Assembly (NCBI GenBank): GCA_026999335.1
Contig: JALTPW010000949.1
Span: forward strand, 1-44,631
Reading direction: 5' to 3'
From: Chromatiales bacterium
GTDB lineage: Bacteria > Pseudomonadota > Gammaproteobacteria > SZUA-152
Length of the DNA: 44,631 nucleotides
The position numbers were made by a program, and so were the translations under genes. Positions 1,924 through 44,631 of this stretch are shown one piece after another. How positions within the stretch are numbered: the first letter of the stretch is position 1; each line of letters opens with the position of its first letter. Under the pieces are notes generated by a model that did not search any database, had not been told where the DNA came from, and worked only from the letters and a program-made list of their open reading frames with translations.

Positions 1924-2048
1924 GACCTCTATTACTAATATACCTCTTTCTCCTTCTAAGGATGACCTTAATCTTCCTATATGCGAAGAATCCTTTATTT
2001 CATTCGTTTCGAGAATTTATTCACCGCAGCAGTCACAATAACGTTTGA

Positions 2049-2432
2049 TCATTTTTTCACCTCAATCACCTTCAAATAAATGTCATACATCGACAGGTAG
2101 TGGTCCAGCATCTCCCGATACTTCCCATCCCCCGGCCCCATGATCAACGCACAAGCCGGGTGCTTGCCAGTCATCAGGGCATACTATCGGGCCTGGCTAA
2201 TGCACTCCTTCCATTTCGGCGCAAAATCGAACTCCACCGCGAACCGGGCGGTAACACAATCTACTCTTCCCCCGCGCACACGTACCTCCATCTTGCCTCC
2301 CTGCGCGTTGCACCACTGAGTTTGATAGTGGCGTTCGTTGGCGGCCTGTACTGGCGTTATGTAGGACACTGCAATCAGCGATAGCGCAAAGGCAGTGCCG
2401 AGGATGGATAGCGCGATTTCTTTCACAGTCAT
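2049..2432 (-). pseudogene. nonsense-interrupted, diverged copy of the exported 127-aa protein gene at 39241..39624
   Basis: same frame, start and stop position as copy 2, but TAG at 2184-2186 where copy 2 has TGG; frame stays open and homologous after the stop. Confidence 0.7.
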
Positions 2433-2629
2433 CTCCTTACAAACATAAAATGTGTTCTCGGGCTGAACATCGCTCCTAGCGATCCTTTCGTTACGTCTTT
2501 GGCAAGTCCTTTTTTGCATAGCGCTCGTAATGTTGATAGCGATTCGCCCAGGTCATAAGCGCATTTTGGAACGCTACTGAGTTTGCCAAGCGCTCTGCGT
2601 TGCGCTTTTGTCAATGCGATCTCTTTCAT
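2429..2629 (-). CDS. hypothetical protein (66 aa), possibly winged-helix-like
   Basis: ORF track; stop overlaps next start (ATGA) with AAGGAG embedded in its 3' end. Confidence 0.6.
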   Translation of the reverse strand: MKEIALTKAQRRALGKLSSVPKCAYDLGESLSTLRALCKKGLAKDVTKGSLGAMFSPRTHFMFVRR

Positions 2630-2680
2630 GATTGCTTCTCGGTGCAGAGAGAAACTAAGCTATGTATCAACCTTTCAAGT

Positions 2681-2896
2681 TTAGTCATTATCATTCCCGT
2701 CAAACGTTGAGATCAGCATGGCCGCGTTGCGTATCCGCTCGTTATTCATGATTCGCGCATCCCGTCTGCCCGTGTTATATTCACTTTGCCGGAACCATGC
2801 GACGCTGTGCGGCGCATAACATCGCCAGTTCGATCCATCGCCGCCGAACTCATGCGCGGCCTTGACGGCCTCAACGATTGATCCCTTTTCAGTCAT
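2681..2896 (-). CDS. hypothetical acidic protein (71 aa)
   Basis: ORF 2681..2941 trimmed to MTEKGS start preceded by GGAGGCACC; overlaps upstream gene end by 8 nt. Confidence 0.55.
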   Translation of the reverse strand: MTEKGSIVEAVKAAHEFGGDGSNWRCYAPHSVAWFRQSEYNTGRRDARIMNNERIRNAAMLISTFDGNDND

Positions 2897-3053
2897 TTTT
2901 TGGTGCCTCCAATTTGTTGTATCTGGCCACGGCCTCCTCAATTAACTGAGAGGCAGGCCGGTCCTGTTCACGAAGCCACCGCACAATCCACGGGGCCAGC
3001 TTGTATGACACGGCGATCTTCCGCTCGCCGGGCGGGAGCTTGGGGCGAGGCAT
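2889..3053 (-). CDS. ribbon-helix-helix (CopG/Arc-like) DNA-binding protein (54 aa)
   Basis: ORF trimmed to MPRPKLPPGERKIAVSYKLAPWIVRWLREQDRPASQLIEEAV: beta-strand then two helices, typical RHH layout. Confidence 0.55.
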   Translation of the reverse strand: MPRPKLPPGERKIAVSYKLAPWIVRWLREQDRPASQLIEEAVARYNKLEAPKND

Positions 3054-3055
3054 GG

Positions 3056-3352
3056 TTACACCTCGCCATTCAGCACTTGCCACAGCGCCCACGCCTCGGG
3101 GCTGATGAATTTGGAGTATTCCAGATACCCCTTTGCCCGGCGAGCCGTGCAGGCTTCGCACTTGTGGCGCTCCGGCAACAGGTCGTAGAAGGTGGCCTTC
3201 ACGCGGTCGGCCTTCTTGCGGCGGTCGAAAGAAAACGGCTCCCGTGCGTAGCCTCGGCCTTTCAGCGGATTGGCCGGCAGGGGCGGCAGGTTGGTGATGC
3301 CGCCGTTGGCCTTGATCAGTTCAACGGCGACGGCTGCTTGTGTGGTGCTCAT
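3056..3352 (-). CDS. hypothetical protein (98 aa)
   Basis: ORF trimmed to MSTTQ start, which forms an ATGA overlap with the upstream stop. Confidence 0.6.
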   Translation of the reverse strand: MSTTQAAVAVELIKANGGITNLPPLPANPLKGRGYAREPFSFDRRKKADRVKATFYDLLPERHKCEACTARRAKGYLEYSKFISPEAWALWQVLNGEV

Positions 3353-3729
3353 AAGATGTCCTCCCAATTAGTCTTGACGAACCCCAGGTGGCGGAACACC
3401 GCCGTTTTGCGGACGTTGCCGTCCTCGTCCGTCACCTCAACGGACTCGCGGCGGCTGAACGCATAGACGGGCGTGACGTCCATGTGCCGGAGCACACGCT
3501 CCAGCTCGGGTATGAAGAAGGGTGCGCCGCCGATCATGGCGGCATCGGCCCCGGCGTCGCGGGCCATGCGGGCAACGGCGTGCGCCGTGGCGTTGAGATC
3601 GTCCGGCGTGGGGATCTCATCGAAAGTAAGCCAACGGGACAGCTCCCCCCGCTGTTCGTCGGGCAGGTCAACCACGCCCGCCTCGACTTGTTCAGGCGTG
3701 GCCTGGTGTTGGGTAAGGTTGATGATCAT
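3349..3729 (-). CDS. hypothetical protein (126 aa), Rossmann-like look
   Basis: ORF trimmed to MIINLTQHQATPEQ start (ATGA overlap with upstream stop); no secure family assignment. Confidence 0.6.
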   Translation of the reverse strand: MIINLTQHQATPEQVEAGVVDLPDEQRGELSRWLTFDEIPTPDDLNATAHAVARMARDAGADAAMIGGAPFFIPELERVLRHMDVTPVYAFSRRESVEVTDEDGNVRKTAVFRHLGFVKTNWEDIL

Positions 3730-4580
3730 TTCTGATCCTCCATTTTCAGTTTGCATGAATCCACATTTAGCCGGGGGCCGTCGTCAAGCTCTACCGGCAC
3801 GATCCCGTCAGTGCGGGTATAGACGACCGCACCGGCTTTGCCCTTGTATGGGCCGTCGAGGACGATCACACGGTCACCCTCCTTTGCTTCGAGGCCAGCA
3901 CGCGGCGACCAGTCCATGATGTGGTATTTGTTCATGTCGCCATAGTAGATGGCGTCGTCGCCAATCCGGCACAGCCACGCGTCGCCGCTCTCCGTCCAAA
4001 GGACGCCGTCCCAGCTAGCCGTCTTGTCGGCCGCCATAATGGGCTCTTGCCCGTCGGCGCAGATGAAGCCGAGCGAGCGGAAGGTGGAGCAGCCACCGGA
4101 ATAGCTGCCGTCAATCGAGGACGTGTGGCCCTCGTTGTGGCCGGCGATGCCGACCTGTACGACCGGCATACCCCGGCGGTCATACCACTTGGTTTCCCGC
4201 ACTTTTAGCGCGGGATTGTGCGGGTCTTTCCCGACCCGCACGGCCACCGCCCGGATGGCCGGGTCGATCTCCGGCTCCGGCTCCGGCTCCGGCTCGGGTT
4301 TGGCCTGGGCGGGCTCCGGTGCTTCGCCCAGCTCGGCGGCCAGTTCATCGACCGCCGCCGAGAAGGCCTGGTACTTGGCCTCAGCCGCGCCAGTACCGTC
4401 GCACAGGCGGTCCTCGGCGGCCTTATCTTCCAGCCGTGCCAGTACCTTACGGGCGCGGGCCAGCAGCGCAGGAGCCTCAATGGCCGCCCGCGTGACGATC
4501 CCCATGGACCGCGCACCGCGAACACTCGCGGCGGCGGCCCTGACGGCTTTGGCGCTTATTTGTGCTGCCGTCTTTTTCAT
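3726..4580 (-). CDS. hypothetical protein with PEPEPEPEPE linker and C-terminal KOW-like motif (284 aa; alternative start 4607)
   Basis: ORF 3726..4607; second ATG at 4580 has GAGGAA upstream; GDRVIVLDGPYKGKAGAVV resembles a KOW motif. Confidence 0.65.
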   Translation of the reverse strand: MKKTAAQISAKAVRAAAASVRGARSMGIVTRAAIEAPALLARARKVLARLEDKAAEDRLCDGTGAAEAKYQAFSAAVDELAAELGEAPEPAQAKPEPEPEPEPEIDPAIRAVAVRVGKDPHNPALKVRETKWYDRRGMPVVQVGIAGHNEGHTSSIDGSYSGGCSTFRSLGFICADGQEPIMAADKTASWDGVLWTESGDAWLCRIGDDAIYYGDMNKYHIMDWSPRAGLEAKEGDRVIVLDGPYKGKAGAVVYTRTDGIVPVELDDGPRLNVDSCKLKMEDQK

Positions 4581-4613
4581 GCCTTGTTCCTCTTGTTTGA
4601 TTGCCATGCTAAA

Positions 4614-4641
4614 AGTATATACCCTTATCTATAATTGTCAA
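4614..4641 (-). promoter_or_regulatory. near-consensus sigma70-type promoter reading leftward into the GC-rich cassette
   Basis: minus strand TTGACA (4641-4636), 16-nt spacer, TATACT (4619-4614); inside a 74-bp AT-rich gap. Confidence 0.55.
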
Positions 4642-4681
4642 TACTTTTTTGCAAATTATTAACCGCTATTTTTGTGTTGTT

Positions 4682-4879
4682 TTATTTCTTAGTGTTTTGT
4701 GTGGTTTTAGAGGCAACCGGCCACCAGCCGTCGCAGTTGTTGGGGTCCGTAGCCGGGCCGCGCTTGATGAAGAAGGACCAGGCTTGCATCGGGTCAGGGC
4801 GCGTGCCGCTGTCCAGGTGCCTGCGGCAACGCTTGCGATGCGGGCAGGTATCGAGGGCGCACATGTCATAGTCAGGCAT
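4682..4879 (-). CDS. hypothetical Cys/His-containing small protein (65 aa)
   Basis: ORF 4682..4888 trimmed to MPDYDMC start with GAGAGG 9 nt upstream. Confidence 0.5.
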   Translation of the reverse strand: MPDYDMCALDTCPHRKRCRRHLDSGTRPDPMQAWSFFIKRGPATDPNNCDGWWPVASKTTQNTKK

Positions 4880-5066
4880 GGCTATCATCCTCTCTGACGC
4901 TGCTCCACCACCACCATACGCCGCAGTAGTGGCAGAACAGTCGGGCGGTCGATCCCATCCGGGTATGCCCGCACCTTGGACACTTGTCGTACTCCCACAT
5001 CGTCGTAGCGTTGCCGGGAAGGTCTGCCGTTTTGCCGTCGGGTTTTAGCTTATGGTTGCTCGACAT
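4872..5066 (-). CDS. zinc-ribbon-like small protein (64 aa)
   Basis: CPRCG ... CHYCG pair of CxxC motifs; start uncertain (22-nt overlap with upstream gene). Confidence 0.5.
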   Translation of the reverse strand: MSSNHKLKPDGKTADLPGNATTMWEYDKCPRCGHTRMGSTARLFCHYCGVWWWWSSVREDDSHA

Positions 5067-5278
5067 TCAAACGCATCCAGTATATCTGGCAGATAGGTCC
5101 ACTTGTCTGGCAAGTCATCGTAAGCAAGTGGACAATCGTCTATGTCTGTCCAGACGCCTTCTGGCCAGTATAAAAGCACTTCGGGTATGCGCATTTCCCA
5201 CACGCACAGCACCGCGATGCAACTCTGTATCTCCGGCACGTGCGGCGGTTCAGTAATTGGTTTCCAGTCGGCTTTCAT
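5045..5278 (-). CDS. hypothetical protein, DUF551-like (from memory)
   Basis: 77 aa; N-terminal W-x-P-I-x-E-x-P pattern common in small phage early proteins. Confidence 0.5.
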   Translation of the reverse strand: MKADWKPITEPPHVPEIQSCIAVLCVWEMRIPEVLLYWPEGVWTDIDDCPLAYDDLPDKWTYLPDILDAFECRATIS

Positions 5279-5501
5279 CCCTACCTACCTCCCTTAATGA
5301 ATTTTCCCAACCAACGGACCTTGTAATAAAGTAGTGCTTCCCCCCTATGGCCATCCACATAGAAAAGTATTCATTTTTCTTAGGTTTTTTCTCGAATCCC
5401 CGCCATTCTCCGTCTGCGTCTAAAGCTATCCAGTTAACCCAATCGGGTGCTTCGTACTCTTTTCCGTCTATTGTTACTTTCTTTATTTCTTTTTTGCTCA
5501 T
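5250..5501 (-). CDS. hypothetical protein (83 aa)
   Basis: ORF 5250..5579 trimmed to MSKKEIKK start just after the upstream TAG. Confidence 0.55.
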   Translation of the reverse strand: MSKKEIKKVTIDGKEYEAPDWVNWIALDADGEWRGFEKKPKKNEYFSMWMAIGGKHYFITRSVGWENSLREVGRDESRLETNY

Positions 5502-5503
5502 AC

Positions 5504-5815
5504 CTAGTCCTTCATAGTTACGGCAGGAATAGCCGCCCATCCACTTCCTACCTCCGTCGTGACATAAGCGACGCTGCACCAGTCGCCTACTCTTAGGCGC
5601 GGATCAAACTGCAACATAGTCACGCTACCTAAATCGCTCCCTGAGCTTAGTTCAGGCGCATCGCAGGGTGGGACGGCAACGACCAGATTTCTTGCTGCTG
5701 GCTTTGCGACTACATAGGCGCGTGGGATCACATGGCGAATTTTCTTTACCGTGTATCCCTGTTCTTCATACCACTCACGGATAGCGCGGCGGGTTGCTCG
5801 TTCAAGTTTGGTCAT
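5504..5815 (-). CDS. hypothetical protein (103 aa), full-length MTKLERATR paralog
   Basis: ORF track; start overlaps upstream stop (TAATG). Confidence 0.6.
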   Translation of the reverse strand: MTKLERATRRAIREWYEEQGYTVKKIRHVIPRAYVVAKPAARNLVVAVPPCDAPELSSGSDLGSVTMLQFDPRLRVGDWCSVAYVTTEVGSGWAAIPAVTMKD

Positions 5816-6018
5816 TATCCGTCGTCCTCATCCAGCCATCGCTCGTATGCAGATACCGCGTTTACGTGTGCTTTTTCAAACTTTTCTATGCCTCCGTTCA
5901 CCTCGCGAAACTCTCGCCATACTTGCGCTTTAACAAGGTCAGAACTCGCTTCGGCGATCCTCCTTAGCAGCGCTAGTTCAGTGCTATAGATCAGTTCCTG
6001 GTCATCGTTATCGGTCAT
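5815..6018 (-). CDS. hypothetical acidic protein (67 aa)
   Basis: ORF 5815..6114 trimmed to MTDNDDQ start, 1 nt after the stop of the 34-aa ORF. Confidence 0.5.
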   Translation of the reverse strand: MTDNDDQELIYSTELALLRRIAEASSDLVKAQVWREFREVNGGIEKFEKAHVNAVSAYERWLDEDDG

Positions 6019-6019
6019 G

Positions 6020-6124
6020 TTATTTCTCGCGCGGAATCGCATGGTGGATTTTATTCGCCGTGTACACCTGCTCTTCACGCCATTCCCGGATTGCTTTTCT
6101 TGTTGCTCGTTCAAGTTTGGTCAT
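6020..6124 (-). CDS. 34-aa truncated paralog of the 5504..5815 protein (possibly a remnant)
   Basis: MTKLERATRKAIREWREEQVYTANKIHHAIPREK versus MTKLERATRRAIREWYEEQGYTVKKIRHVIPRAY; 25-nt exact DNA repeat at both starts. Confidence 0.35.
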   Translation of the reverse strand: MTKLERATRKAIREWREEQVYTANKIHHAIPREK

Positions 6125-6311
6125 TACTCACACCTATTTGCTCCCAAACCCTGTTTGCTTCCAAATTTAGAAACCAGCGATAAAAGTTGTAGGCTAATAT
6201 ACGTTGTTTTGATGTACGCATAACCTCGTCACCGCTAGCAAACCACCAGATAGTGAAGAAGGCGCGCCAATGATCTTTATACACACAAGATTTTTTGTGC
6301 TTATTCCTCAT
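6111..6311 (-). CDS. hypothetical protein (66 aa), weak call
   Basis: ORF 6111..6365 trimmed to MRNKHK (ATGA-type overlap with upstream stop); odd W-rich composition, AT-rich DNA. Confidence 0.3.
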   Translation of the reverse strand: MRNKHKKSCVYKDHWRAFFTIWWFASGDEVMRTSKQRILAYNFYRWFLNLEANRVWEQIGVSNDQT

Positions 6312-6534
6312 CCCCTTTTCCTCGCTCGTCAGTGAAGTCTCCTGGCTTGCATTGCAGCTCATCACCTACTTCACGACACAGACATAGGTGTATTGTCTCT
6401 GTGCCATAAGGCTCACCAAAAGCTGGGCACCAATCTCCACACCGGTCACCGTCGCAATGAATACAGAATTGGGATTTCATTTTCCCGGCCCGTTCTAACC
6501 ATAGCCAGCCATCCTCATCGATCTTGATTTTCAT
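6301..6534 (-). CDS. Cys-rich small protein, paralog A (77 aa)
   Basis: MKIKIDEDGWLWLERAG ... CGDWCPAFGEP; ends DFTDERGKGDEE. Confidence 0.6.
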   Translation of the reverse strand: MKIKIDEDGWLWLERAGKMKSQFCIHCDGDRCGDWCPAFGEPYGTETIHLCLCREVGDELQCKPGDFTDERGKGDEE

Positions 6535-6829
6535 TTTCACCCTCCCCAGCTTCCATTTTCTTCTCACCACGAAAATCTACAAGATCTTCTTTTGGGATAT
6601 AGAATGCGGTATTATGGCATAATGTTAACTGCACGCGCGGTACCAGTGTAGAATCTGTGTCATTATCAATAATCTCCTCAGAGAAGAACACAGGCTCGCC
6701 AAAATGCGGACACCAGTCCCCGCATGAAGTCGTCATCCCTATCGCAAATGAGAATGGGCATGTCTGCTGGCGGTAAATACCGGCTCTCTCTATGTGAAGC
6801 CTGCCGTCTTCGTCAATTAGTACCTTCAT
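6515..6829 (-). CDS. Cys-rich small protein, paralog B (104 aa)
   Basis: ORF 6515..7072 trimmed to MKVLIDEDGRLHIERAG ... CGDWCPHFGEP. Confidence 0.6.
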   Translation of the reverse strand: MKVLIDEDGRLHIERAGIYRQQTCPFSFAIGMTTSCGDWCPHFGEPVFFSEEIIDNDTDSTLVPRVQLTLCHNTAFYIPKEDLVDFRGEKKMEAGEGENENQDR

Positions 6830-7109
6830 CTTCTTTTCCTCGCTCGTCGGTGAAGTCGTTATCTCTATCTGGGCCGACGCTGTACTTACCATCTTGTGAT
6901 AGCTTGAGGTCCGGTATCGAGCAAACGTCGCCGGCCATCGTGTGCCACAGTAGGTGCTGGCGAATCTCGAAGGCCATAACTGACGCTGTTCGCCAGTTTG
7001 GTTTTCCATTGATAAGCATTTCATCCTTTGCCCGTTCATCACACCAGGCTTCCAGTTTCTCGATGCGATCAAGCAGTTCGTTTGCTAGCTTGGGACTTAT
7101 CTCTTTCAT
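6813..7109 (-). CDS. hypothetical protein (98 aa)
   Basis: ORF track; ends DFTDERGKEDEGTN, the same tail as paralog A. Confidence 0.6.
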   Translation of the reverse strand: MKEISPKLANELLDRIEKLEAWCDERAKDEMLINGKPNWRTASVMAFEIRQHLLWHTMAGDVCSIPDLKLSQDGKYSVGPDRDNDFTDERGKEDEGTN

Positions 7110-7687
7110 GCAGCATTTACCTCAATTATCTGCTCAATAATCGGACGCCATGTGCGCGACCACTCCAGTGCATCATCATCCATTGACGCGATGCGATCAT
7201 CATCGAAGCCCCGCCATTCTTCGATGCTGTGCTGTTCATAACCTATTGCCATTACATCCTTGGTTAAGACAATCGGCCAGGGGTCGGTCTGTATGGTCTT
7301 AATTTCTTTTCTATTGCCGATGACGTGGTGTAACTTAGCATCTCGTAGATCAGCATCGCGCAGACTGGCAAAGCCCAGATTAGCGTAGCGCAGATCGGCG
7401 CAGCTCAGATTGGCATCGCGCAGATCGGTGAAGCGCAGATCGGCAGAGTACAGTTCGACGTAGCTCAGATTGGCAGAGTACAGATCGACGTAGCGTAGAT
7501 CTGCATCGCGCAGATTGGCGTAGTTCAGATTGGCAGAGTGCAGATCGGCGTAGCGCAGATCGGTGAAGCGCAGATTGGCTCTTTCCGGTTTCGCGCCATA
7601 ATGGGCATGATGCGGTAACCCTCGCTCTGCCAGCCACGCTTGATGAGGTGTGTACCAGTCAAATTTATATAAGTGTGCCAATTTCAT
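7106..7687 (-). CDS. pentapeptide-repeat protein (193 aa)
   Basis: 17 uninterrupted A(D/N)LxX-type pentads from ANLRF to AKLHH, then a 60-aa non-repeat C-terminal domain. Confidence 0.85.
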   Translation of the reverse strand: MKLAHLYKFDWYTPHQAWLAERGLPHHAHYGAKPERANLRFTDLRYADLHSANLNYANLRDADLRYVDLYSANLSYVELYSADLRFTDLRDANLSCADLRYANLGFASLRDADLRDAKLHHVIGNRKEIKTIQTDPWPIVLTKDVMAIGYEQHSIEEWRGFDDDRIASMDDDALEWSRTWRPIIEQIIEVNAA

Positions 7688-7887
7688 TATTTATCACCTG
7701 TGTCTTCTAATCCGTGCCAGTAGAGAACGTCATAATCCTCATCCCACATCTCACTTAAAGCGTCTTTTACTAGGGCACCCTTTTGCTCATCGCTCTGTAG
7801 CTTCTGGTGTTTCGCTCGATGATGATCCATCTGGGCGCGATGGGTGGCGAAAATCTTTCCGCACGTCCTGCATTTAACGCCAGTCAT
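7687..7887 (-). CDS. small protein with a C2H2-type zinc-finger signature (66 aa)
   Basis: CRTCGKIFATHRAQMDHHRAKH fits C-x2-C-x12/13-H-x3/4-H; acidic C-terminus. Confidence 0.6.
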   Translation of the reverse strand: MTGVKCRTCGKIFATHRAQMDHHRAKHQKLQSDEQKGALVKDALSEMWDEDYDVLYWHGLEDTGDK

Positions 7888-8027: not shown

Positions 8028-8104
8028 TGGTGCGGGTAGCAGGATTCGAACCTGCGACCACTCGCTCCCAAAGCGAGTGCTCTACCAGACTGAGCTATAC
8101 CCAC
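8028..8104 (-). tRNA. tRNA-Pro (anticodon UGG), CCA encoded
   Basis: hand-folded 77-nt cloverleaf: acceptor GTGGGTA/TACCCGC, anticodon stem CTCGC/GCGAG with loop TTTGGGA, T-loop GGTTCGAATCC, 3' ACCA. Confidence 0.85.
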
Positions 8105-8827: not shown

Positions 8828-9421
8828 TTATTTACGCATCGGCATCACGCCGCCGCGGCCGCCTTGGAATCGGAATACATACAATGACCTGGGATCGTTT
8901 TTGTCAGACTGCACAATCTTTGCGCCCAGGTCGTTGAGGATGGCGACGTATTTGTAATTCATATATCCGCCGAGGACGGGGACGCTGCCATAATTTACAT
9001 ATTCCCATCCATTACCCTGACAATCCAAACAATCTACATCGTCGCCACCTTTAACAACGCCATCACCGCAGCAGGTATTACAGTCGTGCAGATGGCCGAG
9101 ATCACATTCAACTTCTCCAGCACCTTTGCAATCTGGGCATCGTCCCATACGCCCTGAGCCGCCGCATTCCTTGCAGTACTCTTTCTCTGGCTCTTCAACA
9201 TCGTCAAGAGTTGTATAGCCTTTGTACGTTGCGTTTATAACATCAACAATTTTGTGAATTTTATCGTAGTCGGGGCCGATGCCGAGATCGCCGTTCCAAT
9301 CCTTCGTCATAATGATAATCGCGCCATCCGACGCGCAAAAGTATCCGTCACACTCGAACGGCTTTTTGAGATAATCCCGCAACTCGCTTTCAGGGGCGCA
9401 GTATTTTGTCAAATCGATCAT
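8828..9421 (-). CDS. protein with DnaJ-type cysteine-rich zinc-finger region (197 aa)
   Basis: CKECGGSG, CPDCKGAG, CNTCCGDG, CLDCQGNG (CxxCxGxG repeats); start set to ATG at 9421 with GGAGGG upstream. Confidence 0.7.
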   Translation of the reverse strand: MIDLTKYCAPESELRDYLKKPFECDGYFCASDGAIIIMTKDWNGDLGIGPDYDKIHKIVDVINATYKGYTTLDDVEEPEKEYCKECGGSGRMGRCPDCKGAGEVECDLGHLHDCNTCCGDGVVKGGDDVDCLDCQGNGWEYVNYGSVPVLGGYMNYKYVAILNDLGAKIVQSDKNDPRSLYVFRFQGGRGGVMPMRK

Positions 9422-9422
9422 T

Positions 9423-9572
9423 TCACCCTCCAAACAAATTGACTTTCAGCCATGCCAGCCCGACTCCGATACCCGTTCCGGCAAGCCAGATTGCGATCCC
9501 GATCAACATCAGGGCAACCAGCAAACCGAAAGCAGGCAAGTCGTCGTCCATACCAAATGGCCTGTGGCTCAT
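9423..9572 (-). CDS. small single-pass membrane protein (49 aa, below ORF-track cutoff)
   Basis: ATGA overlap with exonuclease stop; MSHRPFGMDDDLPAFGLLVALMLIGIAIWLAGTGIGVGLAWLKVNLFGG; ends 1 nt before next ATG. Confidence 0.55.
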   Translation of the reverse strand: MSHRPFGMDDDLPAFGLLVALMLIGIAIWLAGTGIGVGLAWLKVNLFGG

Positions 9573-10192
9573 GCCGCATCCATAATTTTGATTTGCCTGA
9601 ACACCTCATCACGATCCCGAATCACTGCGGCGAGCTGGATTTTTAGTCCGCGAACGAAATCGGGGTCAGGAAACTGGCGGATCACGAGCATCGGAAGGTG
9701 TGGATGATAGAATAACGAATCACACCATTCACGCTCGCAAATGAATATCTGCCCCTGGGTCTGAGCAATATATTTAGGCAGCGTCTTCTGGTGCTTGGCA
9801 AAGTAAAGCAGCGCCTTGACATGTGCCTTTGTCTCCAGACATTTGATCTCAACCAACCCATCTGCGCCAACAAGACCGTCCGGCGAACAGCCATAACGCT
9901 GGAGATCGTCAGTGACAAATCCGACGGGCTCGACCTCATGATATGCCAGCTCATAAGCCATTATGGCTTCCGCTTCCATCTCAACGCCTCGCTGCGTCGA
10001 GGCGTTTCCGCCGAATGACGATAGTGGCCGCCCGGCGTACTTCTCCGCCGCCAGAAGTTCGGCGTAGTCCTTCATGGACTTCGACGGCTCGCCCGTACTT
10101 GTGACGAGCTTAGAGAACTCGCTTGCGGTTGGCATCCCTGCCCGGAGCGCAAACCACTCATCCGACCGCTGCTCAACGTCGTGGACGATCAC
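9569..10192 (-). CDS. YqaJ-type viral recombinase exonuclease
   Basis: QRSDEWFALRAGMPTASEFSKL and GCSPDGL...GLVEIKC motifs; directly downstream of the RecT gene. Confidence 0.85.
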   Translation of the reverse strand: MIVHDVEQRSDEWFALRAGMPTASEFSKLVTSTGEPSKSMKDYAELLAAEKYAGRPLSSFGGNASTQRGVEMEAEAIMAYELAYHEVEPVGFVTDDLQRYGCSPDGLVGADGLVEIKCLETKAHVKALLYFAKHQKTLPKYIAQTQGQIFICEREWCDSLFYHPHLPMLVIRQFPDPDFVRGLKIQLAAVIRDRDEVFRQIKIMDAA

Positions 10193-11034
10193 TTTTTCGC
10201 CTTCCGCTTGATCGTGGCGTCAATCATCCTTAACACATCGGGCAAGGCGGGCTTTGCGATCTGTTCGATAGAGCTTGCCCCCAATGACTTTTTCAGCCAC
10301 GCGAGGAACTTCGCAAGATCAATATCGTTATCCGTGATCTTTGCGTGAATGGCGAGCGCCTCATCCTCTGTGATGCGCTGTGTATCCGCAATAACCTCGC
10401 TTTGTCCAGTAACATCGATGATCTTGCCTTCCATTTCTTCGGCTGTGGGTGCTGCGCCAACTTCAGGCCATGCTTTCCGTAATGCCTGCGCTTCGGCACA
10501 CTTAGCAAGCTGGCCTCTTGGGCGTTTTCTCCACATACGATTCGGCGCATCGGACTTACTGCTATCAGAAGCGTAATTCTCAAGCCAGTATTCTTGCGCT
10601 GTAAATTCTACAATCCGTCCATCGACCATTTTAGAAGCGACAATCCTGCACCACTCTGGATACACAACGTTGACGCGGTTGCCGTTTTTATCCGTAAAAG
10701 CTCCTGTTTTATCCGGCCCAAACTCTGGGGCGCTGATCCCCGCATATGTCCCAGATCGATCCGCCTGAATGCGGTAAAGACCGATTCCCGGCATAATCAC
10801 ATCTCGCCACTCGCTGCGGCCTGTTTGCGTATTTTTTACGCTCATGGGGACAATATGGACAGGCTTTTGCATAGGATCGAGCTTTGCCGCAGTGCAATAC
10901 TGCATCACCATGCGCACGGAGTCAGCGGCAGCGCCGGGGTATAAACTTGATTGCAAGACGCTGATTATTTCATCATCAGACATCGCGGGTGACTTATCAC
11001 TCTTCTTTTTTTCAGTCAATTCGCTCATTACCAA
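10189..11034 (-). CDS. recT: RecT-family single-strand annealing protein
   Basis: 281 aa; RecT-like core (GIGLYRIQADRSGTYAGI, QLAKCAEAQALRKAWPE); paired with YqaJ exonuclease through an ATGA-type overlap. Confidence 0.8.
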   Translation of the reverse strand: MVMSELTEKKKSDKSPAMSDDEIISVLQSSLYPGAAADSVRMVMQYCTAAKLDPMQKPVHIVPMSVKNTQTGRSEWRDVIMPGIGLYRIQADRSGTYAGISAPEFGPDKTGAFTDKNGNRVNVVYPEWCRIVASKMVDGRIVEFTAQEYWLENYASDSSKSDAPNRMWRKRPRGQLAKCAEAQALRKAWPEVGAAPTAEEMEGKIIDVTGQSEVIADTQRITEDEALAIHAKITDNDIDLAKFLAWLKKSLGASSIEQIAKPALPDVLRMIDATIKRKAKK

Positions 11035-11622: not shown

Positions 11623-12264
11623 TCAAAACTTATAATTAAAGCTGATCGCATAATCCAGCGAACTAAAATTCCTGTCGATGCCCTGCTCCCACCATCCAAC
11701 ACCAGCATCTAACCAGACCTGGCGATCAACACGCAGGTATTCAGATATACGCATCGACCGATAACCAAGAGAAAAGCCAACGCTGAGCCGCCCGGTGATA
11801 GGCTTGTCGATCTCAATCCCAATCGACGCGGCGATAGTGTCATCGACTTCGATCAAATATGAATCGAAGTTAAACGGTGTCCCTTCCATCGAAAAGCCAT
11901 AGCGGGAATTGAAGTAGTAATAGAGACCTTCGTTCCAGTCATGCCGCCCTGATGGATTGGTCGAGACGAAGTAATAACCCGCCTGCGCGAACAGGCGGAC
12001 GTGGGGGGTGAGTTCGTGCGTGATGCCGACGCCAAGCCCGGTCATCTTCAAATCGTAAGCGCCCCAGATCGGGACGATCCGAGTTTGTTCCTGCGAGATA
12101 AACAAATAGCTATCGTCTTTGTGGTAACTGATCTGAACCCCATACCAGGCCGTAGTCTGATAAGCATCATCGTCTGTTAGGCGAGAATGTGAGATCAAAT
12201 CTACCGACACTTCGGCCTGAGCTACAGAAGTCAGAAGAAGTAAAACAAGTGTCATCCATTTCAT
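11623..12264 (-). CDS. outer-membrane beta-barrel protein with signal peptide
   Basis: MKWMTLVLLLLTSVAQA signal peptide; alternating aromatic/hydrophobic strands; C-terminal ...SFNYKF with terminal Phe. Confidence 0.7.
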   Translation of the reverse strand: MKWMTLVLLLLTSVAQAEVSVDLISHSRLTDDDAYQTTAWYGVQISYHKDDSYLFISQEQTRIVPIWGAYDLKMTGLGVGITHELTPHVRLFAQAGYYFVSTNPSGRHDWNEGLYYYFNSRYGFSMEGTPFNFDSYLIEVDDTIAASIGIEIDKPITGRLSVGFSLGYRSMRISEYLRVDRQVWLDAGVGWWEQGIDRNFSSLDYAISFNYKF

Positions 12265-37038: not shown

Positions 37039-37295
37039 TGACTGAATCAAGAAAAAGAAGGTCTGAGGATTCATGGCATCTTGATAAGAGGGTGCCGATA
37101 GCCGTGATTATCGCTTTGTTAATTCAAGCAGCGTCGATCGTCTGGTGGGCTTCTCGTGTCGAATCACGGTTAGCGGTTGTCGAGAAGTACCAACACGATA
37201 ACGGCCAGTTATCGGAGCGCGTCGTCAGGCTTGAAGTCTTACTTGAAAGGGTGGACAGGACGATCTCAAGAGTCGAGAGGAAGATCGACAAATGA
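37038..37295 (+). CDS. single-TM protein upstream of the endolysin (holin candidate)
   Basis: ORF trimmed to MTESRK; VPIAVIIALLIQAASIVWWA TM then coiled coil. Confidence 0.45.
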   Translation: MTESRKRRSEDSWHLDKRVPIAVIIALLIQAASIVWWASRVESRLAVVEKYQHDNGQLSERVVRLEVLLERVDRTISRVERKIDK

Positions 37296-37717
37296 ACTTT
37301 AGTCGAGATAAGCTAGTCGCAGAACTCTCCAGAGACGAGGGTCGCGTTCCTCACGCCTACAAGGATTCCGAAGGCTATCTGACTATCGGCGTAGGTCACC
37401 TGATCGACAAGAACAAGGGCGGAAGATTGCCGGAATTCATTATCGATCTGCTTCTTGAATATGACATTGATGCGAAGGTTAGCCAGATCAAGAACGCACT
37501 CCCGTGGGCCGAAAATCTTTCCGATGCAAGACAACGCGTGATTATCAATATGGTGTTCAATCTCGGTATCACGGGTTTTCAGAAGTTTCACAATACAATA
37601 GCCGCGATCAAGGCCGAGGACTGGGATGTGGCTGCGGCGGAGATGCTAAATTCCAAGTGGGCAAGGCAGGTAGGACCAAGGGCGGAAAGACTGGCCCAGA
37701 TGATGAGGGAAGGATGA
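37292..37717 (+). CDS. endolysin, T4-type lysozyme (GH24)
   Basis: SRDEGRVPHAYKDSEGYLTIGVGHLI contains the E...D...T catalytic pattern. Confidence 0.85.
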   Translation: MNFSRDKLVAELSRDEGRVPHAYKDSEGYLTIGVGHLIDKNKGGRLPEFIIDLLLEYDIDAKVSQIKNALPWAENLSDARQRVIINMVFNLGITGFQKFHNTIAAIKAEDWDVAAAEMLNSKWARQVGPRAERLAQMMREG

Positions 37718-37965
37718 ACTTTAAGCGACTAATTGAACTAGTTTCCGGGGCGCGTACCCTGCTATTGCTCGCCGTGATGATCGGTGCGGTTGCCTTGTGG
37801 GCGCTGGATACCCGGATAACGTGGGAGCAAATGGGAACCGCCCAAAAACAACACCAGCACCTGTTGCTGTATTACCGTTTGAAAGTTCGGATCGCCAATA
37901 ACGAAGACACAAAAAGCGACAAAGTTTTGCAGGCGACCTATCAACGGAATTGGAGGCCCGAATGA
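37714..37965 (+). CDS. single-TM small protein (holin/antiholin candidate)
   Basis: ORF 37504..37965 trimmed to MNFKRLIELVSGARTLLLLAVMIGAVALWAL (ATGA overlap). Confidence 0.45.
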   Translation: MNFKRLIELVSGARTLLLLAVMIGAVALWALDTRITWEQMGTAQKQHQHLLLYYRLKVRIANNEDTKSDKVLQATYQRNWRPE

Positions 37966-38162
37966 ATGACAGATGGAAGAATCGCAGGCGTATGGCCTGG
38001 ATTGCCTTAATCGCTGGAGTGGTTTACCCATTTTTCCCGATTGATCCACAATTAGCCGCTACAATGGCTACGTCATTTTACCTGTTTGTAGCGGGGATTG
38101 TGAGTGTTTACACTGGCGCTGTAACAGTGGATGACAAATGGCAGAGGAAAGAAGATGAATAA
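37962..38162 (+). CDS. two-TM small protein (holin candidate)
   Basis: trimmed to MNDRWKN (ATGA overlap); MAWIALIAGVVYPFF and SFYLFVAGIVSVYTGAV segments. Confidence 0.5.
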   Translation: MNDRWKNRRRMAWIALIAGVVYPFFPIDPQLAATMATSFYLFVAGIVSVYTGAVTVDDKWQRKEDE

Positions 38163-38682
38163 GCTATTCGACAAGATCGTGAATGTGACCCGCTGGATCA
38201 TCGCCCAGCCACTAGGCCGGTATGGCCTGACCTTCGTCGCGGGTATGGTGTTGATTCTACTAGTTCAATGTTCCGTGGCGAGAGCCGGGGAAGTGATGAT
38301 CGGATACGATATACGGTTCAATGACTGGACCGTGGACGTGTGCAACTCGGGAACCTGCATCGGTTATGACTTCGCAAATGATATGGGATGCCTGTCACGG
38401 AACCAATTATCTGACAACCTACGTTTAGGTGGGGGCTTGTGTTACCAGTACAATACCGAATCATTGGTGGGCCGTGTAACAGGAGCGATTTCTGACGATG
38501 AAAGCACCGGGGAGGTATGGGCGAGGGCCCTTGTTTTCGAGGATTATGTGGAAGGCGCCTATGGGGTAGGGTTCAGATACATCGAGGACGATTCGATCCC
38601 TGTCCCTGCAACCGAACCCGTTGGCCCCAACCCGAACAAGCCGCACCACGAGGATCACAGGAAGCGTCACCATGAAGATTAA
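38155..38682 (+). CDS. signal-anchored protein with His-rich C-terminal tail (175 aa), unknown function
   Basis: trimmed to MNKLFDKIV; TM/signal LTFVAGMVLILLVQCSVARA; several Cys; tail KPHHEDHRKRHHED. Confidence 0.55.
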   Translation: MNKLFDKIVNVTRWIIAQPLGRYGLTFVAGMVLILLVQCSVARAGEVMIGYDIRFNDWTVDVCNSGTCIGYDFANDMGCLSRNQLSDNLRLGGGLCYQYNTESLVGRVTGAISDDESTGEVWARALVFEDYVEGAYGVGFRYIEDDSIPVPATEPVGPNPNKPHHEDHRKRHHED

Positions 38683-39031
38683 TGTAATGATCTATATTGC
38701 CGTGACTATCTTCGTGGTCGGCTTCACGCTCGGCTGGTCGGCTCATATCCAGTGGACGGCGGGCGATGCCCTGGAGGCCGTGGAAATGGCCGTTGAAGCC
38801 CGCGAAGAGCTGGGTGACGAGATCACGGATGTGGCCATCGAAGCGGAGAGGGAAGCCGGGGAAGTTCAGATCGTCTACAAGACCATCGAAAAAGAGGTGA
38901 TCAAATATGTCGAAACTCCTGCCGCTGATCGCGTTTGCCTCGATCCTCCTGCTCTCGGCGTGCTCAACGCGGCCGGTCGTGGTGAACGAGTACCCATCGA
39001 TCCCGGCCAACCTGACCCAGCGTTGCCCTGA
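38672..39031 (+). CDS. i-spanin (Rz-like)
   Basis: trimmed to MKINVMIYIAVTIFVVGFTLGW TM, then a charged coiled-coil periplasmic part. Confidence 0.6.
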   Translation: MKINVMIYIAVTIFVVGFTLGWSAHIQWTAGDALEAVEMAVEAREELGDEITDVAIEAEREAGEVQIVYKTIEKEVIKYVETPAADRVCLDPPALGVLNAAGRGERVPIDPGQPDPALP

Positions 39032-39185
39032 GACTCTTCCCGTCGTCCCCGATGGGCGTGCCGGGACGATCCTCACCTCGATGGTCAAATGGGCCGAAAC
39101 CTATCACCGATGCCGGGTTATCCATGACGCCCTCTCGTCCGCCGTGAGACGGATAGAGGAAAAGGCGGGCTCGGGGTCCAGATAG
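38907..39185 (+). CDS. o-spanin-like lipoprotein, overlapped architecture
   Basis: lipobox LLLSAC after a signal peptide; starts inside the i-spanin gene in another frame and extends beyond it. Confidence 0.6.
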   Translation: MSKLLPLIAFASILLLSACSTRPVVVNEYPSIPANLTQRCPETLPVVPDGRAGTILTSMVKWAETYHRCRVIHDALSSAVRRIEEKAGSGSR

Positions 39186-39240
39186 CCGAGTTATCCGCTC
39201 AGCTTGCGTACCACGCGTTACCTTATGGTGTCTAGCCAAA

Positions 39241-39624
39241 TCACTTTGTCACCTCAATCACCTTCAAATAAACGTCATACATCGACAGGTAGTGATCTAG
39301 CATCTCCCGATACTTCCCATCCCCCGGCCCCATAATTAACGCACAAGCCGGGTGCTTGCCGGTCATTAGCGCATACCACCGGGCCTGGCTAATGCACTCT
39401 TTCCACTTCGGCGCGAAGTCGAACTCCACCGCGAACCGGGCCGTAACGCAATCCACGCGCCCGCCGCGGACACGGACCTCCATCTTGCCTCCCTGCGCGT
39501 TGCACCACTGGGCTTGATAGTGGCGTTCGTTGGCGGCCTGTACTGGCGCGATATAGGACACTGCGATCAGGGATAGCGCGAAGGCAGTGCCGAGGATGGA
39601 TAGCGCGATTTCTTTCACAGTCAT
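39241..39624 (-). CDS. exported or membrane-anchored 127-aa protein (intact copy), possible restriction-endonuclease-like core
   Basis: ORF 39241..39711 trimmed to MTVKEIALSILGTAFALSLIAVSYIAPVQA (ATGA overlap, AAGGAG); RVDCVTARFAVEFDFAPKWKE motif. Confidence 0.6.
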   Translation of the reverse strand: MTVKEIALSILGTAFALSLIAVSYIAPVQAANERHYQAQWCNAQGGKMEVRVRGGRVDCVTARFAVEFDFAPKWKECISQARWYALMTGKHPACALIMGPGDGKYREMLDHYLSMYDVYLKVIEVTK

Positions 39625-39821
39625 CTCCTTACAAACATAAAATGTGTTCTCGGGCTGAACATCGCTCCTAGCGATCCTTTCGTTACGTCTTTGGCAAGTC
39701 CTTTTTTGCATAGCGCTCGTAATGTTGATAGCGATTCGCCCAGGTCATAAGCGCATTTTGGAACGCTACTGAGTTTGCCAAGCGCTCTGCGTTGCGCTTT
39801 TGTCAATGCGATCTCTTTCAT
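39621..39821 (-). CDS. hypothetical protein (66 aa)
   Basis: identical to 2429..2629 (+37,192). Confidence 0.6.
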   Translation of the reverse strand: MKEIALTKAQRRALGKLSSVPKCAYDLGESLSTLRALCKKGLAKDVTKGSLGAMFSPRTHFMFVRR

Positions 39822-39872
39822 GATTGCTTCTCGGTGCAGAGAGAAACTAAGCTATGTATCAACCTTTCAAGT

Positions 39873-40088
39873 TTAGTCATTATCATTCCCGTCAAACGTT
39901 GAGATCAGCATGGCCGCGTTGCGTATCCGCTCGTTATTCATGATTCGCGCATCCCGTCTGCCCGTGTTATATTCACTTTGCCGGAACCATGCGACGCTGT
40001 GCGGCGCATAACATCGCCAGTTCGATCCATCGCCGCCGAACTCATGCGCGGCCTTGACGGCCTCAACGATTGATCCCTTTTCAGTCAT
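39873..40088 (-). CDS. hypothetical acidic protein (71 aa)
   Basis: identical to 2681..2896. Confidence 0.55.
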   Translation of the reverse strand: MTEKGSIVEAVKAAHEFGGDGSNWRCYAPHSVAWFRQSEYNTGRRDARIMNNERIRNAAMLISTFDGNDND

Positions 40089-40245
40089 TTTTTGGTGCCT
40101 CCAATTTGTTGTATCTGGCCACGGCCTCCTCAATTAACTGAGAGGCAGGCCGGTCCTGTTCACGAAGCCACCGCACAATCCACGGGGCCAGCTTGTATGA
40201 CACGGCGATCTTCCGCTCGCCGGGCGGGAGCTTGGGGCGAGGCAT
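40081..40245 (-). CDS. ribbon-helix-helix DNA-binding protein (54 aa)
   Basis: identical to 2889..3053. Confidence 0.55.
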   Translation of the reverse strand: MPRPKLPPGERKIAVSYKLAPWIVRWLREQDRPASQLIEEAVARYNKLEAPKND

Positions 40246-40247
40246 GG

Positions 40248-40544
40248 TTACACCTCGCCATTCAGCACTTGCCACAGCGCCCACGCCTCGGGGCTGATGA
40301 ATTTGGAGTATTCCAGATACCCCTTTGCCCGGCGAGCCGTGCAGGCTTCGCACTTGTGGCGCTCCGGCAACAGGTCGTAGAAGGTGGCCTTCACGCGGTC
40401 GGCCTTCTTGCGGCGGTCGAAAGAAAACGGCTCCCGTGCGTAGCCTCGGCCTTTCAGCGGATTGGCCGGCAGGGGCGGCAGGTTGGTGATGCCGCCGTTG
40501 GCCTTGATCAGTTCAACGGCGACGGCTGCTTGTGTGGTGCTCAT
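40248..40544 (-). CDS. hypothetical protein (98 aa)
   Basis: identical to 3056..3352. Confidence 0.6.
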   Translation of the reverse strand: MSTTQAAVAVELIKANGGITNLPPLPANPLKGRGYAREPFSFDRRKKADRVKATFYDLLPERHKCEACTARRAKGYLEYSKFISPEAWALWQVLNGEV

Positions 40545-40921
40545 AAGATGTCCTCCCAATTAGTCTTGACGAACCCCAGGTGGCGGAACACCGCCGTTTT
40601 GCGGACGTTGCCGTCCTCGTCCGTCACCTCAACGGACTCGCGGCGGCTGAACGCATAGACGGGCGTGACGTCCATGTGCCGGAGCACACGCTCCAGCTCG
40701 GGTATGAAGAAGGGTGCGCCGCCGATCATGGCGGCATCGGCCCCGGCGTCGCGGGCCATGCGGGCAACGGCGTGCGCCGTGGCGTTGAGATCGTCCGGCG
40801 TGGGGATCTCATCGAAAGTAAGCCAACGGGACAGCTCCCCCCGCTGTTCGTCGGGCAGGTCAACCACGCCCGCCTCGACTTGTTCAGGCGTGGCCTGGTG
40901 TTGGGTAAGGTTGATGATCAT
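40541..40921 (-). CDS. hypothetical protein (126 aa)
   Basis: identical to 3349..3729. Confidence 0.6.
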   Translation of the reverse strand: MIINLTQHQATPEQVEAGVVDLPDEQRGELSRWLTFDEIPTPDDLNATAHAVARMARDAGADAAMIGGAPFFIPELERVLRHMDVTPVYAFSRRESVEVTDEDGNVRKTAVFRHLGFVKTNWEDIL

Positions 40922-41772
40922 TTCTGATCCTCCATTTTCAGTTTGCATGAATCCACATTTAGCCGGGGGCCGTCGTCAAGCTCTACCGGCACGATCCCGT
41001 CAGTGCGGGTATAGACGACCGCACCGGCTTTGCCCTTGTATGGGCCGTCGAGGACGATCACACGGTCACCCTCCTTTGCTTCGAGGCCAGCACGCGGCGA
41101 CCAGTCCATGATGTGGTATTTGTTCATGTCGCCATAGTAGATGGCGTCGTCGCCAATCCGGCACAGCCACGCGTCGCCGCTCTCCGTCCAAAGGACGCCG
41201 TCCCAGCTAGCCGTCTTGTCGGCCGCCATAATGGGCTCTTGCCCGTCGGCGCAGATGAAGCCGAGCGAGCGGAAGGTGGAGCAGCCACCGGAATAGCTGC
41301 CGTCAATCGAGGACGTGTGGCCCTCGTTGTGGCCGGCGATGCCGACCTGTACGACCGGCATACCCCGGCGGTCATACCACTTGGTTTCCCGCACTTTTAG
41401 CGCGGGATTGTGCGGGTCTTTCCCGACCCGCACGGCCACCGCCCGGATGGCCGGGTCGATCTCCGGCTCCGGCTCCGGCTCCGGCTCGGGTTTGGCCTGG
41501 GCGGGCTCCGGTGCTTCGCCCAGCTCGGCGGCCAGTTCATCGACCGCCGCCGAGAAGGCCTGGTACTTGGCCTCAGCCGCGCCAGTACCGTCGCACAGGC
41601 GGTCCTCGGCGGCCTTATCTTCCAGCCGTGCCAGTACCTTACGGGCGCGGGCCAGCAGCGCAGGAGCCTCAATGGCCGCCCGCGTGACGATCCCCATGGA
41701 CCGCGCACCGCGAACACTCGCGGCGGCGGCCCTGACGGCTTTGGCGCTTATTTGTGCTGCCGTCTTTTTCAT
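40918..41772 (-). CDS. hypothetical protein with PE-repeat linker and KOW-like motif
   Basis: identical to 3726..4580 (alternative start 41799). Confidence 0.65.
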   Translation of the reverse strand: MKKTAAQISAKAVRAAAASVRGARSMGIVTRAAIEAPALLARARKVLARLEDKAAEDRLCDGTGAAEAKYQAFSAAVDELAAELGEAPEPAQAKPEPEPEPEPEIDPAIRAVAVRVGKDPHNPALKVRETKWYDRRGMPVVQVGIAGHNEGHTSSIDGSYSGGCSTFRSLGFICADGQEPIMAADKTASWDGVLWTESGDAWLCRIGDDAIYYGDMNKYHIMDWSPRAGLEAKEGDRVIVLDGPYKGKAGAVVYTRTDGIVPVELDDGPRLNVDSCKLKMEDQK

Positions 41773-41805
41773 GCCTTGTTCCTCTTGTTTGATTGCCATG
41801 CTAAA

Positions 41806-41833
41806 AGTATATACCCTTATCTATAATTGTCAA
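41806..41833 (-). promoter_or_regulatory. near-consensus sigma70-type promoter (copy 2)
   Basis: identical to 4614..4641. Confidence 0.55.
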
Positions 41834-41873
41834 TACTTTTTTGCAAATTATTAACCGCTATTTTTGTGTTGTT

Positions 41874-42071
41874 TTATTTCTTAGTGTTTTGTGTGGTTTT
41901 AGAGGCAACCGGCCACCAGCCGTCGCAGTTGTTGGGGTCCGTAGCCGGGCCGCGCTTGATGAAGAAGGACCAGGCTTGCATCGGGTCAGGGCGCGTGCCG
42001 CTGTCCAGGTGCCTGCGGCAACGCTTGCGATGCGGGCAGGTATCGAGGGCGCACATGTCATAGTCAGGCAT
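41874..42071 (-). CDS. hypothetical Cys/His-containing small protein
   Basis: identical to 4682..4879. Confidence 0.5.
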   Translation of the reverse strand: MPDYDMCALDTCPHRKRCRRHLDSGTRPDPMQAWSFFIKRGPATDPNNCDGWWPVASKTTQNTKK

Positions 42072-42258
42072 GGCTATCATCCTCTCTGACGCTGCTCCAC
42101 CACCACCATACGCCGCAGTAGTGGCAGAACAGTCGGGCGGTCGATCCCATCCGGGTATGCCCGCACCTTGGACACTTGTCGTACTCCCACATCGTCGTAG
42201 CGTTGCCGGGAAGGTCTGCCGTTTTGCCGTCGGGTTTTAGCTTATGGTTGCTCGACAT
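42064..42258 (-). CDS. zinc-ribbon-like small protein
   Basis: identical to 4872..5066. Confidence 0.5.
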   Translation of the reverse strand: MSSNHKLKPDGKTADLPGNATTMWEYDKCPRCGHTRMGSTARLFCHYCGVWWWWSSVREDDSHA

Positions 42259-42693: not shown

Positions 42694-42695
42694 AC

Positions 42696-43210: not shown

Positions 43211-43211
43211 G

Positions 43212-44021: not shown

Positions 44022-44301
44022 CTTCTTTTCCTCGCTCGTCGGTGAAGTCGTTATCTCTATCTGGGCCGACGCTGTACTTACCATCTTGTGATAGCTTGAG
44101 GTCCGGTATCGAGCAAACGTCGCCGGCCATCGTGTGCCACAGTAGGTGCTGGCGAATCTCGAAGGCCATAACTGACGCTGTTCGCCAGTTTGGTTTTCCA
44201 TTGATAAGCATTTCATCCTTTGCCCGTTCATCACACCAGGCTTCCAGTTTCTCGATGCGATCAAGCAGTTCGTTTGCTAGCTTGGGACTTATCTCTTTCA
44301 T
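44005..44301 (-). CDS. hypothetical protein (98 aa)
   Basis: identical to 6813..7109. Confidence 0.6.
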   Translation of the reverse strand: MKEISPKLANELLDRIEKLEAWCDERAKDEMLINGKPNWRTASVMAFEIRQHLLWHTMAGDVCSIPDLKLSQDGKYSVGPDRDNDFTDERGKEDEGTN

Positions 44302-44631
44302 GCAGCATTTACCTCAATTATCTGCTCAATAATCGGACGCCATGTGCGCGACCACTCCAGTGCATCATCATCCATTGACGCGATGCGATCATCATCGAAG
44401 CCCCGCCATTCTTCGATGCTGTGCTGTTCATAACCTATTGCCATTACATCCTTGGTTAAGACAATCGGCCAGGGGTCGGTCTGTATGGTCTTAATTTCTT
44501 TTCTATTGCCGATGACGTGGTGTAACTTAGCATCTCGTAGATCAGCATCGCGCAGACTGGCAAAGCCCAGATTAGCGTAGCGCAGATCGGCGCAGCTCAG
44601 ATTGGCATCGCGCAGATCGGTGAAGCGCAGA
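44298..44631 (-). CDS. pentapeptide-repeat protein, 3' part only (start lies beyond the window end)
   Basis: identical to 7106..7439. Confidence 0.8.
   Translation of the reverse strand, partial: LRFTDLRDANLSCADLRYANLGFASLRDADLRDAKLHHVIGNRKEIKTIQTDPWPIVLTKDVMAIGYEQHSIEEWRGFDDDRIASMDDDALEWSRTWRPIIEQIIEVNAA

Follow-up and report, generated by a model that had tools for sequence, protein, structure and literature searches.

The pentapeptide-repeat gene at 7106..7687 on the minus strand of the window, by which we mean the whole 44,631-nucleotide stretch analysed here, encodes what sequence comparison identifies as one further member of a large, mainly phage-borne family of proteins, each combining an N-terminal cap, an array of pentads and a conserved C-terminal domain (C-domain). 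These proteins are of an already known kind that has barely been studied. The constant feature of the family is the hitherto undescribed C-domain, and the rod that the pentads form changes quickly in length and surface; the only relative to have been tested, gp60 of Vibrio phage 24, is reported to act against a RexAB-like abortive-infection system. By analogy with that relative, we see about an even chance that the present protein is a host-interference or counter-defence protein of a gp60-like family, in which a defence protein would dock on the variable surface of the beta-helix and the C-domain would carry a fixed function. For the window itself the result is a modest one.

The ORF encodes 193 residues and closes with a stop codon at 7106-7108; its assignment draws on the ORF list, a PF00805 match, homologues and an AlphaFold model. 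The start codon is credible as judged from the surrounding nucleotides, where a Shine-Dalgarno-like AGGTGA lies 6 nt 5' of the ATG. This ATG shares 1 nt with the TAA of an upstream 66-residue ORF of the same operon (7687..7887, minus strand), and its TGA and the start of the next, 98-residue ORF downstream (6813..7109, minus strand) overlap as ATGA, so that the gene is embedded in a translationally coupled operon.

An earlier sequence-only reading had described 17 consecutive pentads in perfect register, and the register check bears this out. Residues 37-121 (7325..7579, minus strand) comprise 17 pentads in one register with zero indels, the central position 3 being leucine in all 17; position 1 (i-2) is alanine in 13 of them, threonine in two and valine in two, and position 2 (i-1) is aspartate in eight, asparagine in six, and glutamate, serine and lysine in one each. 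The Pfam match to PF00805 has an E-value of 2.3e-27 and, at 94.6 bits, lies well above the cut-off of 20.2, which places the array far beyond chance. A 15/30-nt periodicity, which the same reading had noted at 7340-7600, is recovered by Tandem Repeats Finder as a degenerate tandem repeat within the pentad-coding DNA at 7347..7579 (no strand assigned), with 15.5 copies and 66% matches at period 15, 73% matches at period 30 and 77% at period 60; the 60-nt period corresponds to four pentads, that is, to one full turn of the beta-helix. The segment preceding the repeats has the 36 residues originally given (residues 1-36; 7580..7687, minus strand) and forms a cap with modelled helices at residues 3-6 and 12-21 and an H..WL motif directly before the first pentad. 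The C-terminal domain had been put at 60 residues; it measures 72 (residues 122-193; 7109..7324, minus strand) and is conserved, and the model shows it as two beta-hairpins followed by three helices.

The full-length AlphaFold model (mean pLDDT 88.9, pTM 0.76) has one short strand for every five residues from 37 to 121, with pLDDT of 90-97 over the repeats, and Foldseek relates these repeats to pentapeptide proteins of solved structure, including 4yei, 2j8k and 6omx (best E-value 2.5e-7, the others weaker). The repeat part is predicted to be a right-handed quadrilateral beta-helix of some 4.25 turns, in agreement with the four or so turns anticipated from the letters of the sequence. Beyond the rod the model places the hairpins at 130-132/139-141 and 145-148/151-154 and the helices at 155-159, 163-169 and 173-191; the C-domain modelled alone gives a pLDDT of 89.7.

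No family or solved structure accounts for this domain in the collections searched. Pfam returned zero matches, comparison of its profile with PDB sequences matched pentad columns only and found no relative, and Foldseek gave no match in the PDB at E<=0.001. An SsgA-like fold (3cm1) was considered and rejected, its VIA-align Z of 5.0, the best among 48,161 chains, lying in the noise range. In BFVD, a collection of predicted viral structures, the fold occurs only in phage pentapeptide proteins, with TM values of up to 0.91, and includes a distant match at 20% identity in a protein of Pseudomonas phage tabernarius; in the ESM Atlas the domain belongs mostly to viral clusters of 64-125 residues. 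As far as the predicted structure allows comparison, then, the C-domain has no previous description and a clear match among solved structures is absent. Phage proteins in which pentapeptides are joined to DUF5758 (PF19062) are related in another way: they have a homologous cap helix (hhalign, 97.6%) and the same pentad type, but their C-terminal domain is unrelated, the hhalign alignment stopping at the cap. DUF5758 can be dismissed as an identity for the present C-domain, which has no PF19062 match. A cap common to both families and a C-domain that is not mean that a cap-plus-rod scaffold is combined with alternative tail domains.

The family itself is extensive. Among 5.8 billion proteins searched, 2858 are homologues at E<=1e-3, and many of these span over 90% of the query and come from contigs of 30-60 kb; an alignment of 30 of the 2858 shows the three parts distinctly: a cap helix with H..WL, a variable number of pentads and a conserved C-terminal block. 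H15, W18 and L19 are all present here, H15 and L19 being at least 90% conserved in that alignment. The C-terminal block has three invariant residues, G149, W158 and M169, and a further set conserved at 90% or more (G124, N125, T142, I148, H153, F161, I166, D170, A173, W176 and I188); the consensus of the domain reads IGN..EIK..Q..W.I.YT...M.IGC..H.I..W..F.D..I..MD..AL.WW..WKPI, and residue 150, usually cysteine in the family, is tyrosine in the present protein. An HMM of the C-domain matches the query at residues 122-192 with 117.9 bits. With the 72 residues alone as query, phmmer matched 966 of 1.84 billion cluster representatives at E<=1e-3, 175 of them at E<=1e-10, the match being nearly always C-terminal in proteins of 70-300 residues. 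Stand-alone C-domains exist (P0186, 72 residues; P0145, 79 residues), and in ten longer members Pfam domains other than pentapeptide repeats were absent.

Among cultured phages the C-domain occurs in 111 Rheinheimera Barba phages (as part of gp043), in Yersinia phage fEV-1 and in a Ralstonia phage, and it is also found in the uncultured siphovirus MW202423. Gp043 of phage Barba resembles the present protein closely, aligning over its full length (92% of the query) with an identity of 45-48%, or 54% within the C-domain, whose fold it matches with a TM of 0.91; its carrier differs in being an 80-kb myovirus. The length of this gene varies between near-identical Barba phages, and a literature search found no paper on the Barba pentapeptide gene. 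In Barba18A (L011) two genes labelled 'pentapeptide' lie 0.7 kb apart, at 2910-3887 and 4596-5213; gp041 is of the PF01469 type, and gp043 belongs to the cap, pentad and C-domain family.

What varies within the family is the rod. The closest relatives are 93-97% identical to the present protein in the C-domain and 75-94% identical in the cap, yet have 8, 13, 13, 15 or 17 pentads, and in one homologue (P0009) with an 81% identical C-domain the repeat surface is wholly different and largely uncharged. Across 232 members the length of the array has a median of 14 pentads and extremes of 0 and 27. These comparisons show constant ends and a rod whose length and outer surface change fast among relatives; that some C-domains stand alone, with no pentads, suggests in addition that the array may not be the essential binding part.

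A possible reason for such variability comes from Vibrio phage 24. All six escapers of this phage from Sucellos, a RexAB-like abortive-infection system, carry Y112R and N115D in 24_60, described as "a pentapeptide repeats containing-protein", together with a silent change at N110, and deletion of 24_60 makes the phage far more sensitive to Sucellos; the anti-defence role is only postulated by the authors, from a single experiment, and the repeat region of 24_60 was reported to be misassembled in the reference (preprint, bioRxiv 10.1101/2024.07.02.601686). We found no follow-up literature on 24_60. The GenBank version of gp60 (SBVc24_0060, KJ572844.2; L095:12900-13322) has 140 residues, consisting of a cap helix, 8 pentads and a tail with the core GCQ..TIEEW..F....I..MD..AL. 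An HMM built from the 72 columns of the C-domain only matches residues 82-117 of gp60 (30.1 bits, E 1.6e-11), and hhalign aligns gp60 with the family at a probability of 99.4%; gp60 is thus a divergent member of the same family. It resembles the present protein in its cap helix with H..(W/F)(L/I), in pentads of the A(D/N)LxG type and in the core of the C-domain, and its gene likewise lies among small early-region genes, adjoining methyltransferases and a primase. The differences are considerable: 140 residues and 8 pentads in the GenBank record, whose array is misassembled according to the preprint, as against 193 residues and 17 pentads here; a C-domain of which the first hairpin and last helix are divergent, only the core (HMM positions 24-58) being common, and which a tblastn search with the C-domain did not find; and a Vibrio cholerae myovirus as carrier, whereas the phage of the window is a siphovirus.

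The only N-x-Y-x-x-N pattern of the GenBank gp60, N40-L-Y42-G-A-N45, lies inside the pentad array and is offset from the published numbering by exactly 70 residues, or 14 pentads. From this pattern match we infer that, in the escapers, ANLYG has become ANLRG and ANLRG has become ADLRG, at positions of the rod that would face outwards, in which case the rod surface would be an evolving interface. We propose that the fast-changing outer surface of the beta-helix would bind a host or prophage defence protein, such as an abortive-infection sensor, and that the constant C-terminal domain would supply the fixed function, whether oligomerization, anchoring or contact with an effector. It is possible, though we hold this only tentatively, that the family as a whole consists of modular phage inhibitors of abortive-infection sensors, with a slippage-prone, re-tunable rod and a C-domain that neutralizes RexAB-like or other defence proteins. 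If that is true, about a thousand sequence clusters of phage genes would constitute one widespread counter-defence class; if the gp60 function generalizes, the class would be not only large but easily recognized, and the C-domain would be a good structural target.

Genes for pentapeptide-repeat proteins turn up frequently in the early regions of phages, where annotation or guesswork often makes them Qnr-like DNA mimics; the evidence for the present family points elsewhere. The sequence-only reading had put the protein forward as a DNA-mimic candidate for gyrase or for defence enzymes; in its general form, a Qnr/MfpA- or Ocr-like mimic, this explanation holds that the beta-helix imitates B-DNA and binds gyrase, a restriction enzyme, RecBCD or some other DNA-binding enzyme, and we regard it as quite unlikely. 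In its favour, the protein has the fold class of MfpA, Qnr and AlbG and is mildly acidic (31 acidic against 23 basic residues, net -8, pI 5.5, with -7 in the C-domain), the gene follows those for RecT and an exonuclease in a phage with no recognizable Gam, and the family member of MW202423 lies directly 5' of a type I restriction-modification-like gene. When the surface charge is read from the sequence, however, it is not strongly acidic. In the 85 residues of the repeats, 13 acidic side chains stand against 10 basic ones, for a net charge of -3, with aspartate at i-1 and arginine at i+1 within the same pentads, and a manual reading of the pentads gives net charges of about +1, 0, -3 and -1 for the four faces of the rod. 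Among the 195 family members with at least six pentads the median charge is -0.09 per pentad and 36% of the arrays are neutral or basic; the charge of the C-domain ranges from -10 to +8 across the family.

Dimensions and architecture argue in the same direction. Each turn of a pentapeptide beta-helix rises by about 4.8 Å, and 4.25 turns make a rod of only about 20 Å; the number of pentads, from none to 27, is not conserved. The protein shares with MfpA, Qnr, AlbG and McbG its predicted right-handed quadrilateral beta-helix, but it lacks their loops and C-terminal dimerization helix and ends instead in the additional 72-residue domain, and its repeat surface is near neutral and of a length that is not conserved in its family. 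Membership of the MfpA and Qnr families was rejected, since the NCBIfam scores lie far below every cut-off (25.9 bits against 360 for the MfpA model; 14.7-22.6 bits against 240-500 for the Qnr models), and no Qnr-annotated record was present among the 313 plasmid matches listed or sampled from a search of 72,556 plasmids. A predominantly electronegative, DNA-like surface of conserved length is likewise at odds with the charges and array lengths read from these sequences, and an acidic mimic of the Ocr/ArdA type was discarded because the excess of acidic over basic residues and the pI fall short of the carboxylate density of such proteins. DNA mimicry is not supported by these comparisons as the function of the family and is probably not that of the present protein. 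Of the two parts of the original suggestion, then, action on host defence has gained plausibility through the report of gp60 against Sucellos, and the route through gyrase and DNA mimicry is left unsupported.

The genome that carries the gene can be described with some precision. The window is a whole contig, the longest of a fragmented 4.36-Mb MAG; its GC content is 52.1% against 55.5% for the MAG, and no sequence in common with it was found in the other contigs, so that it is probably a phage contig that was binned with the MAG. A phage-host search gave no match to E. coli, and a KSB1 MAG, at 41%, is the only named close relative among genome contigs. Positions 2048-7439 recur at 39240-44631, with all 33 mismatches confined to 2052-2388 and zero mismatches between 2389-7439 and 39581-44631; the contig therefore represents about 1.2 lengths of a phage genome of approximately 37.2 kb (~37,192 bp). 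A second copy of the 3' part of the pentapeptide gene, covering residues 84-193, is accordingly present at 44298..44630 on the minus strand, where it is 100% identical and ends with the contig; it is the same gene seen twice, through the wrap-around of a circular or permuted genome. Positions 1-2047, with a GC content of 43%, have no counterpart at 37193-39239, and it seems that two versions of one variable region (1-2388 and 37193-39580) were joined during assembly.

The phage is a lambdoid siphovirus. Its rightward arm encodes an O/DnaD-like replication protein, a helicase, a DNA methyltransferase, the large terminase, a portal protein, the major head protein and a tape-measure protein. The leftward arm and a rightward Cro/YdaS-like HTH ORF, whose start is at 12928, diverge near 12.8-12.9 kb. 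In order of transcription, the leftward arm contains an outer-membrane-protein (OMP)-like ORF of 213 residues (11623-12264, minus strand), RecT (10189-11034), the exonuclease (9569-10192), a Cys-rich protein of 201 residues (8828-9433, minus strand), a tRNA-Pro(TGG) gene (8028-8104, minus strand), the 66-residue ORF, the pentapeptide gene and further small ORFs. This layout resembles a lambdoid early-left operon, which makes early expression a reasonable expectation. That the gene is expressed early, as the sequence-only reading had assumed, is plausible from gene order only, that is, from its place in a leftward recombination operon; a promoter/terminator scan gave no backing, its 11 promoter-like sites comparing with 10.0 +/- 3.4 expected and so standing at chance level.

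Two other explanations bear on this neighbourhood. To see how far it is typical, we turn to 45 viral contigs from IMG/VR that carry a pentapeptide gene with the C-domain. Clustering of all neighbouring ORFs revealed no fixed partner gene in the 45 loci, and the recurrent neighbours are CI-like repressors, DnaB-type helicases, NinG/Rap, Erf, exonucleases, HNH nucleases, DNA methyltransferases and primases. Gene content of this kind places the family, as far as annotation of these loci shows, in an accessory-gene zone of the early-type region of tailed-phage genomes, a location that fits a host-interference gene and points to no particular target. The consistent company of replication and recombination genes, with a homologue of the window's exonuclease within 5 kb in seven of the 45 loci (the most frequent case), could also mean that the protein serves the phage's own replication or recombination machinery as an adaptor or regulator, with the C-domain binding a phage protein. 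We think this unlikely, given that neither neighbour nor partner is conserved, that a hypervariable array with constant ends fits a protein in an arms race better than a housekeeping one, and that Vibrio phage 24 does not need the gene on hosts lacking Sucellos.

The remaining alternative is that the gene is a moron expressed in lysogeny, or a superinfection-exclusion factor, which shields the lysogen from other phages. The OMP-like ORF in the same arm resembles an outer-membrane beta-barrel moron, and bacterial genomes and plasmids also carry homologues of the pentapeptide protein, which probably sit in prophages. Yet PADLOC gave no match for the protein or for seven of its neighbours, no integrase or CI-like repressor was found in the phage of the window, the gene is translationally coupled into a long operon with recombination genes, and the sole tested relative acts for the phage and not for its host. 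Exclusion of other phages is therefore very unlikely to be its role, and counter-defence remains the reading that we prefer.

Several further features of the leftward operon deserve mention. The 213-residue OMP-like ORF upstream of RecT combines a signal peptide (…LLLTSVAQA) with a C-terminal Phe, and no PHROG, Pfam or PADLOC match was found for it. The 201-residue protein encoded directly after the exonuclease contains a run of CxxCxGxG-type motifs resembling the zinc-finger region of DnaJ-type proteins; it has a full-length match to phrog_37414 (unknown function) and none in Pfam. The tRNA-Pro(TGG), which lies inside the leftward operon, is 87-97% identical to the tRNA-Pro of marine Synechococcus phages and of Xanthomonas virus PB119, and these are the only megablast matches of the region to 50,697 phage records. 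The 66-residue ORF encodes a C2H2-like motif (CxxC…HxxxH…H) and gave no family match. On the other side of the pentapeptide gene, the 98-residue ORF has a homologue in the same position in viral contig L012, and in that contig too the gene is followed by counterparts of a pair of ORFs found here at 6301-6570 and 6515-7072 (both minus strand), each with a copy of a paralogous Cys-containing domain (…IDEDG.L..ERAG…CGDWCP.FGEP). The 185-residue ORF at 6515-7072 probably starts internally, since its 5' part overlaps the 98-residue ORF.

Relatives in other settings show further arrangements. A homologue on a 140-kb plasmid of Leptospira interrogans (NZ_CP092671.1, 90495-90956) aligns with residues 40-193, including the C-domain, at 43% identity, and shorter relatives are present on small, 4.9-kb plasmids from Salmonella. 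In MW202423.1 (L010:5863-7858) the family member, of 120 residues and directly 5' of the gene annotated as type I restriction-modification, lies downstream of a gp157-like gene, with lar (restriction alleviation) about 5 kb away. In another viral contig (L024:2180-3931) two family genes stand in tandem, encoding proteins of 254 and 328 residues, each with its own C-domain.
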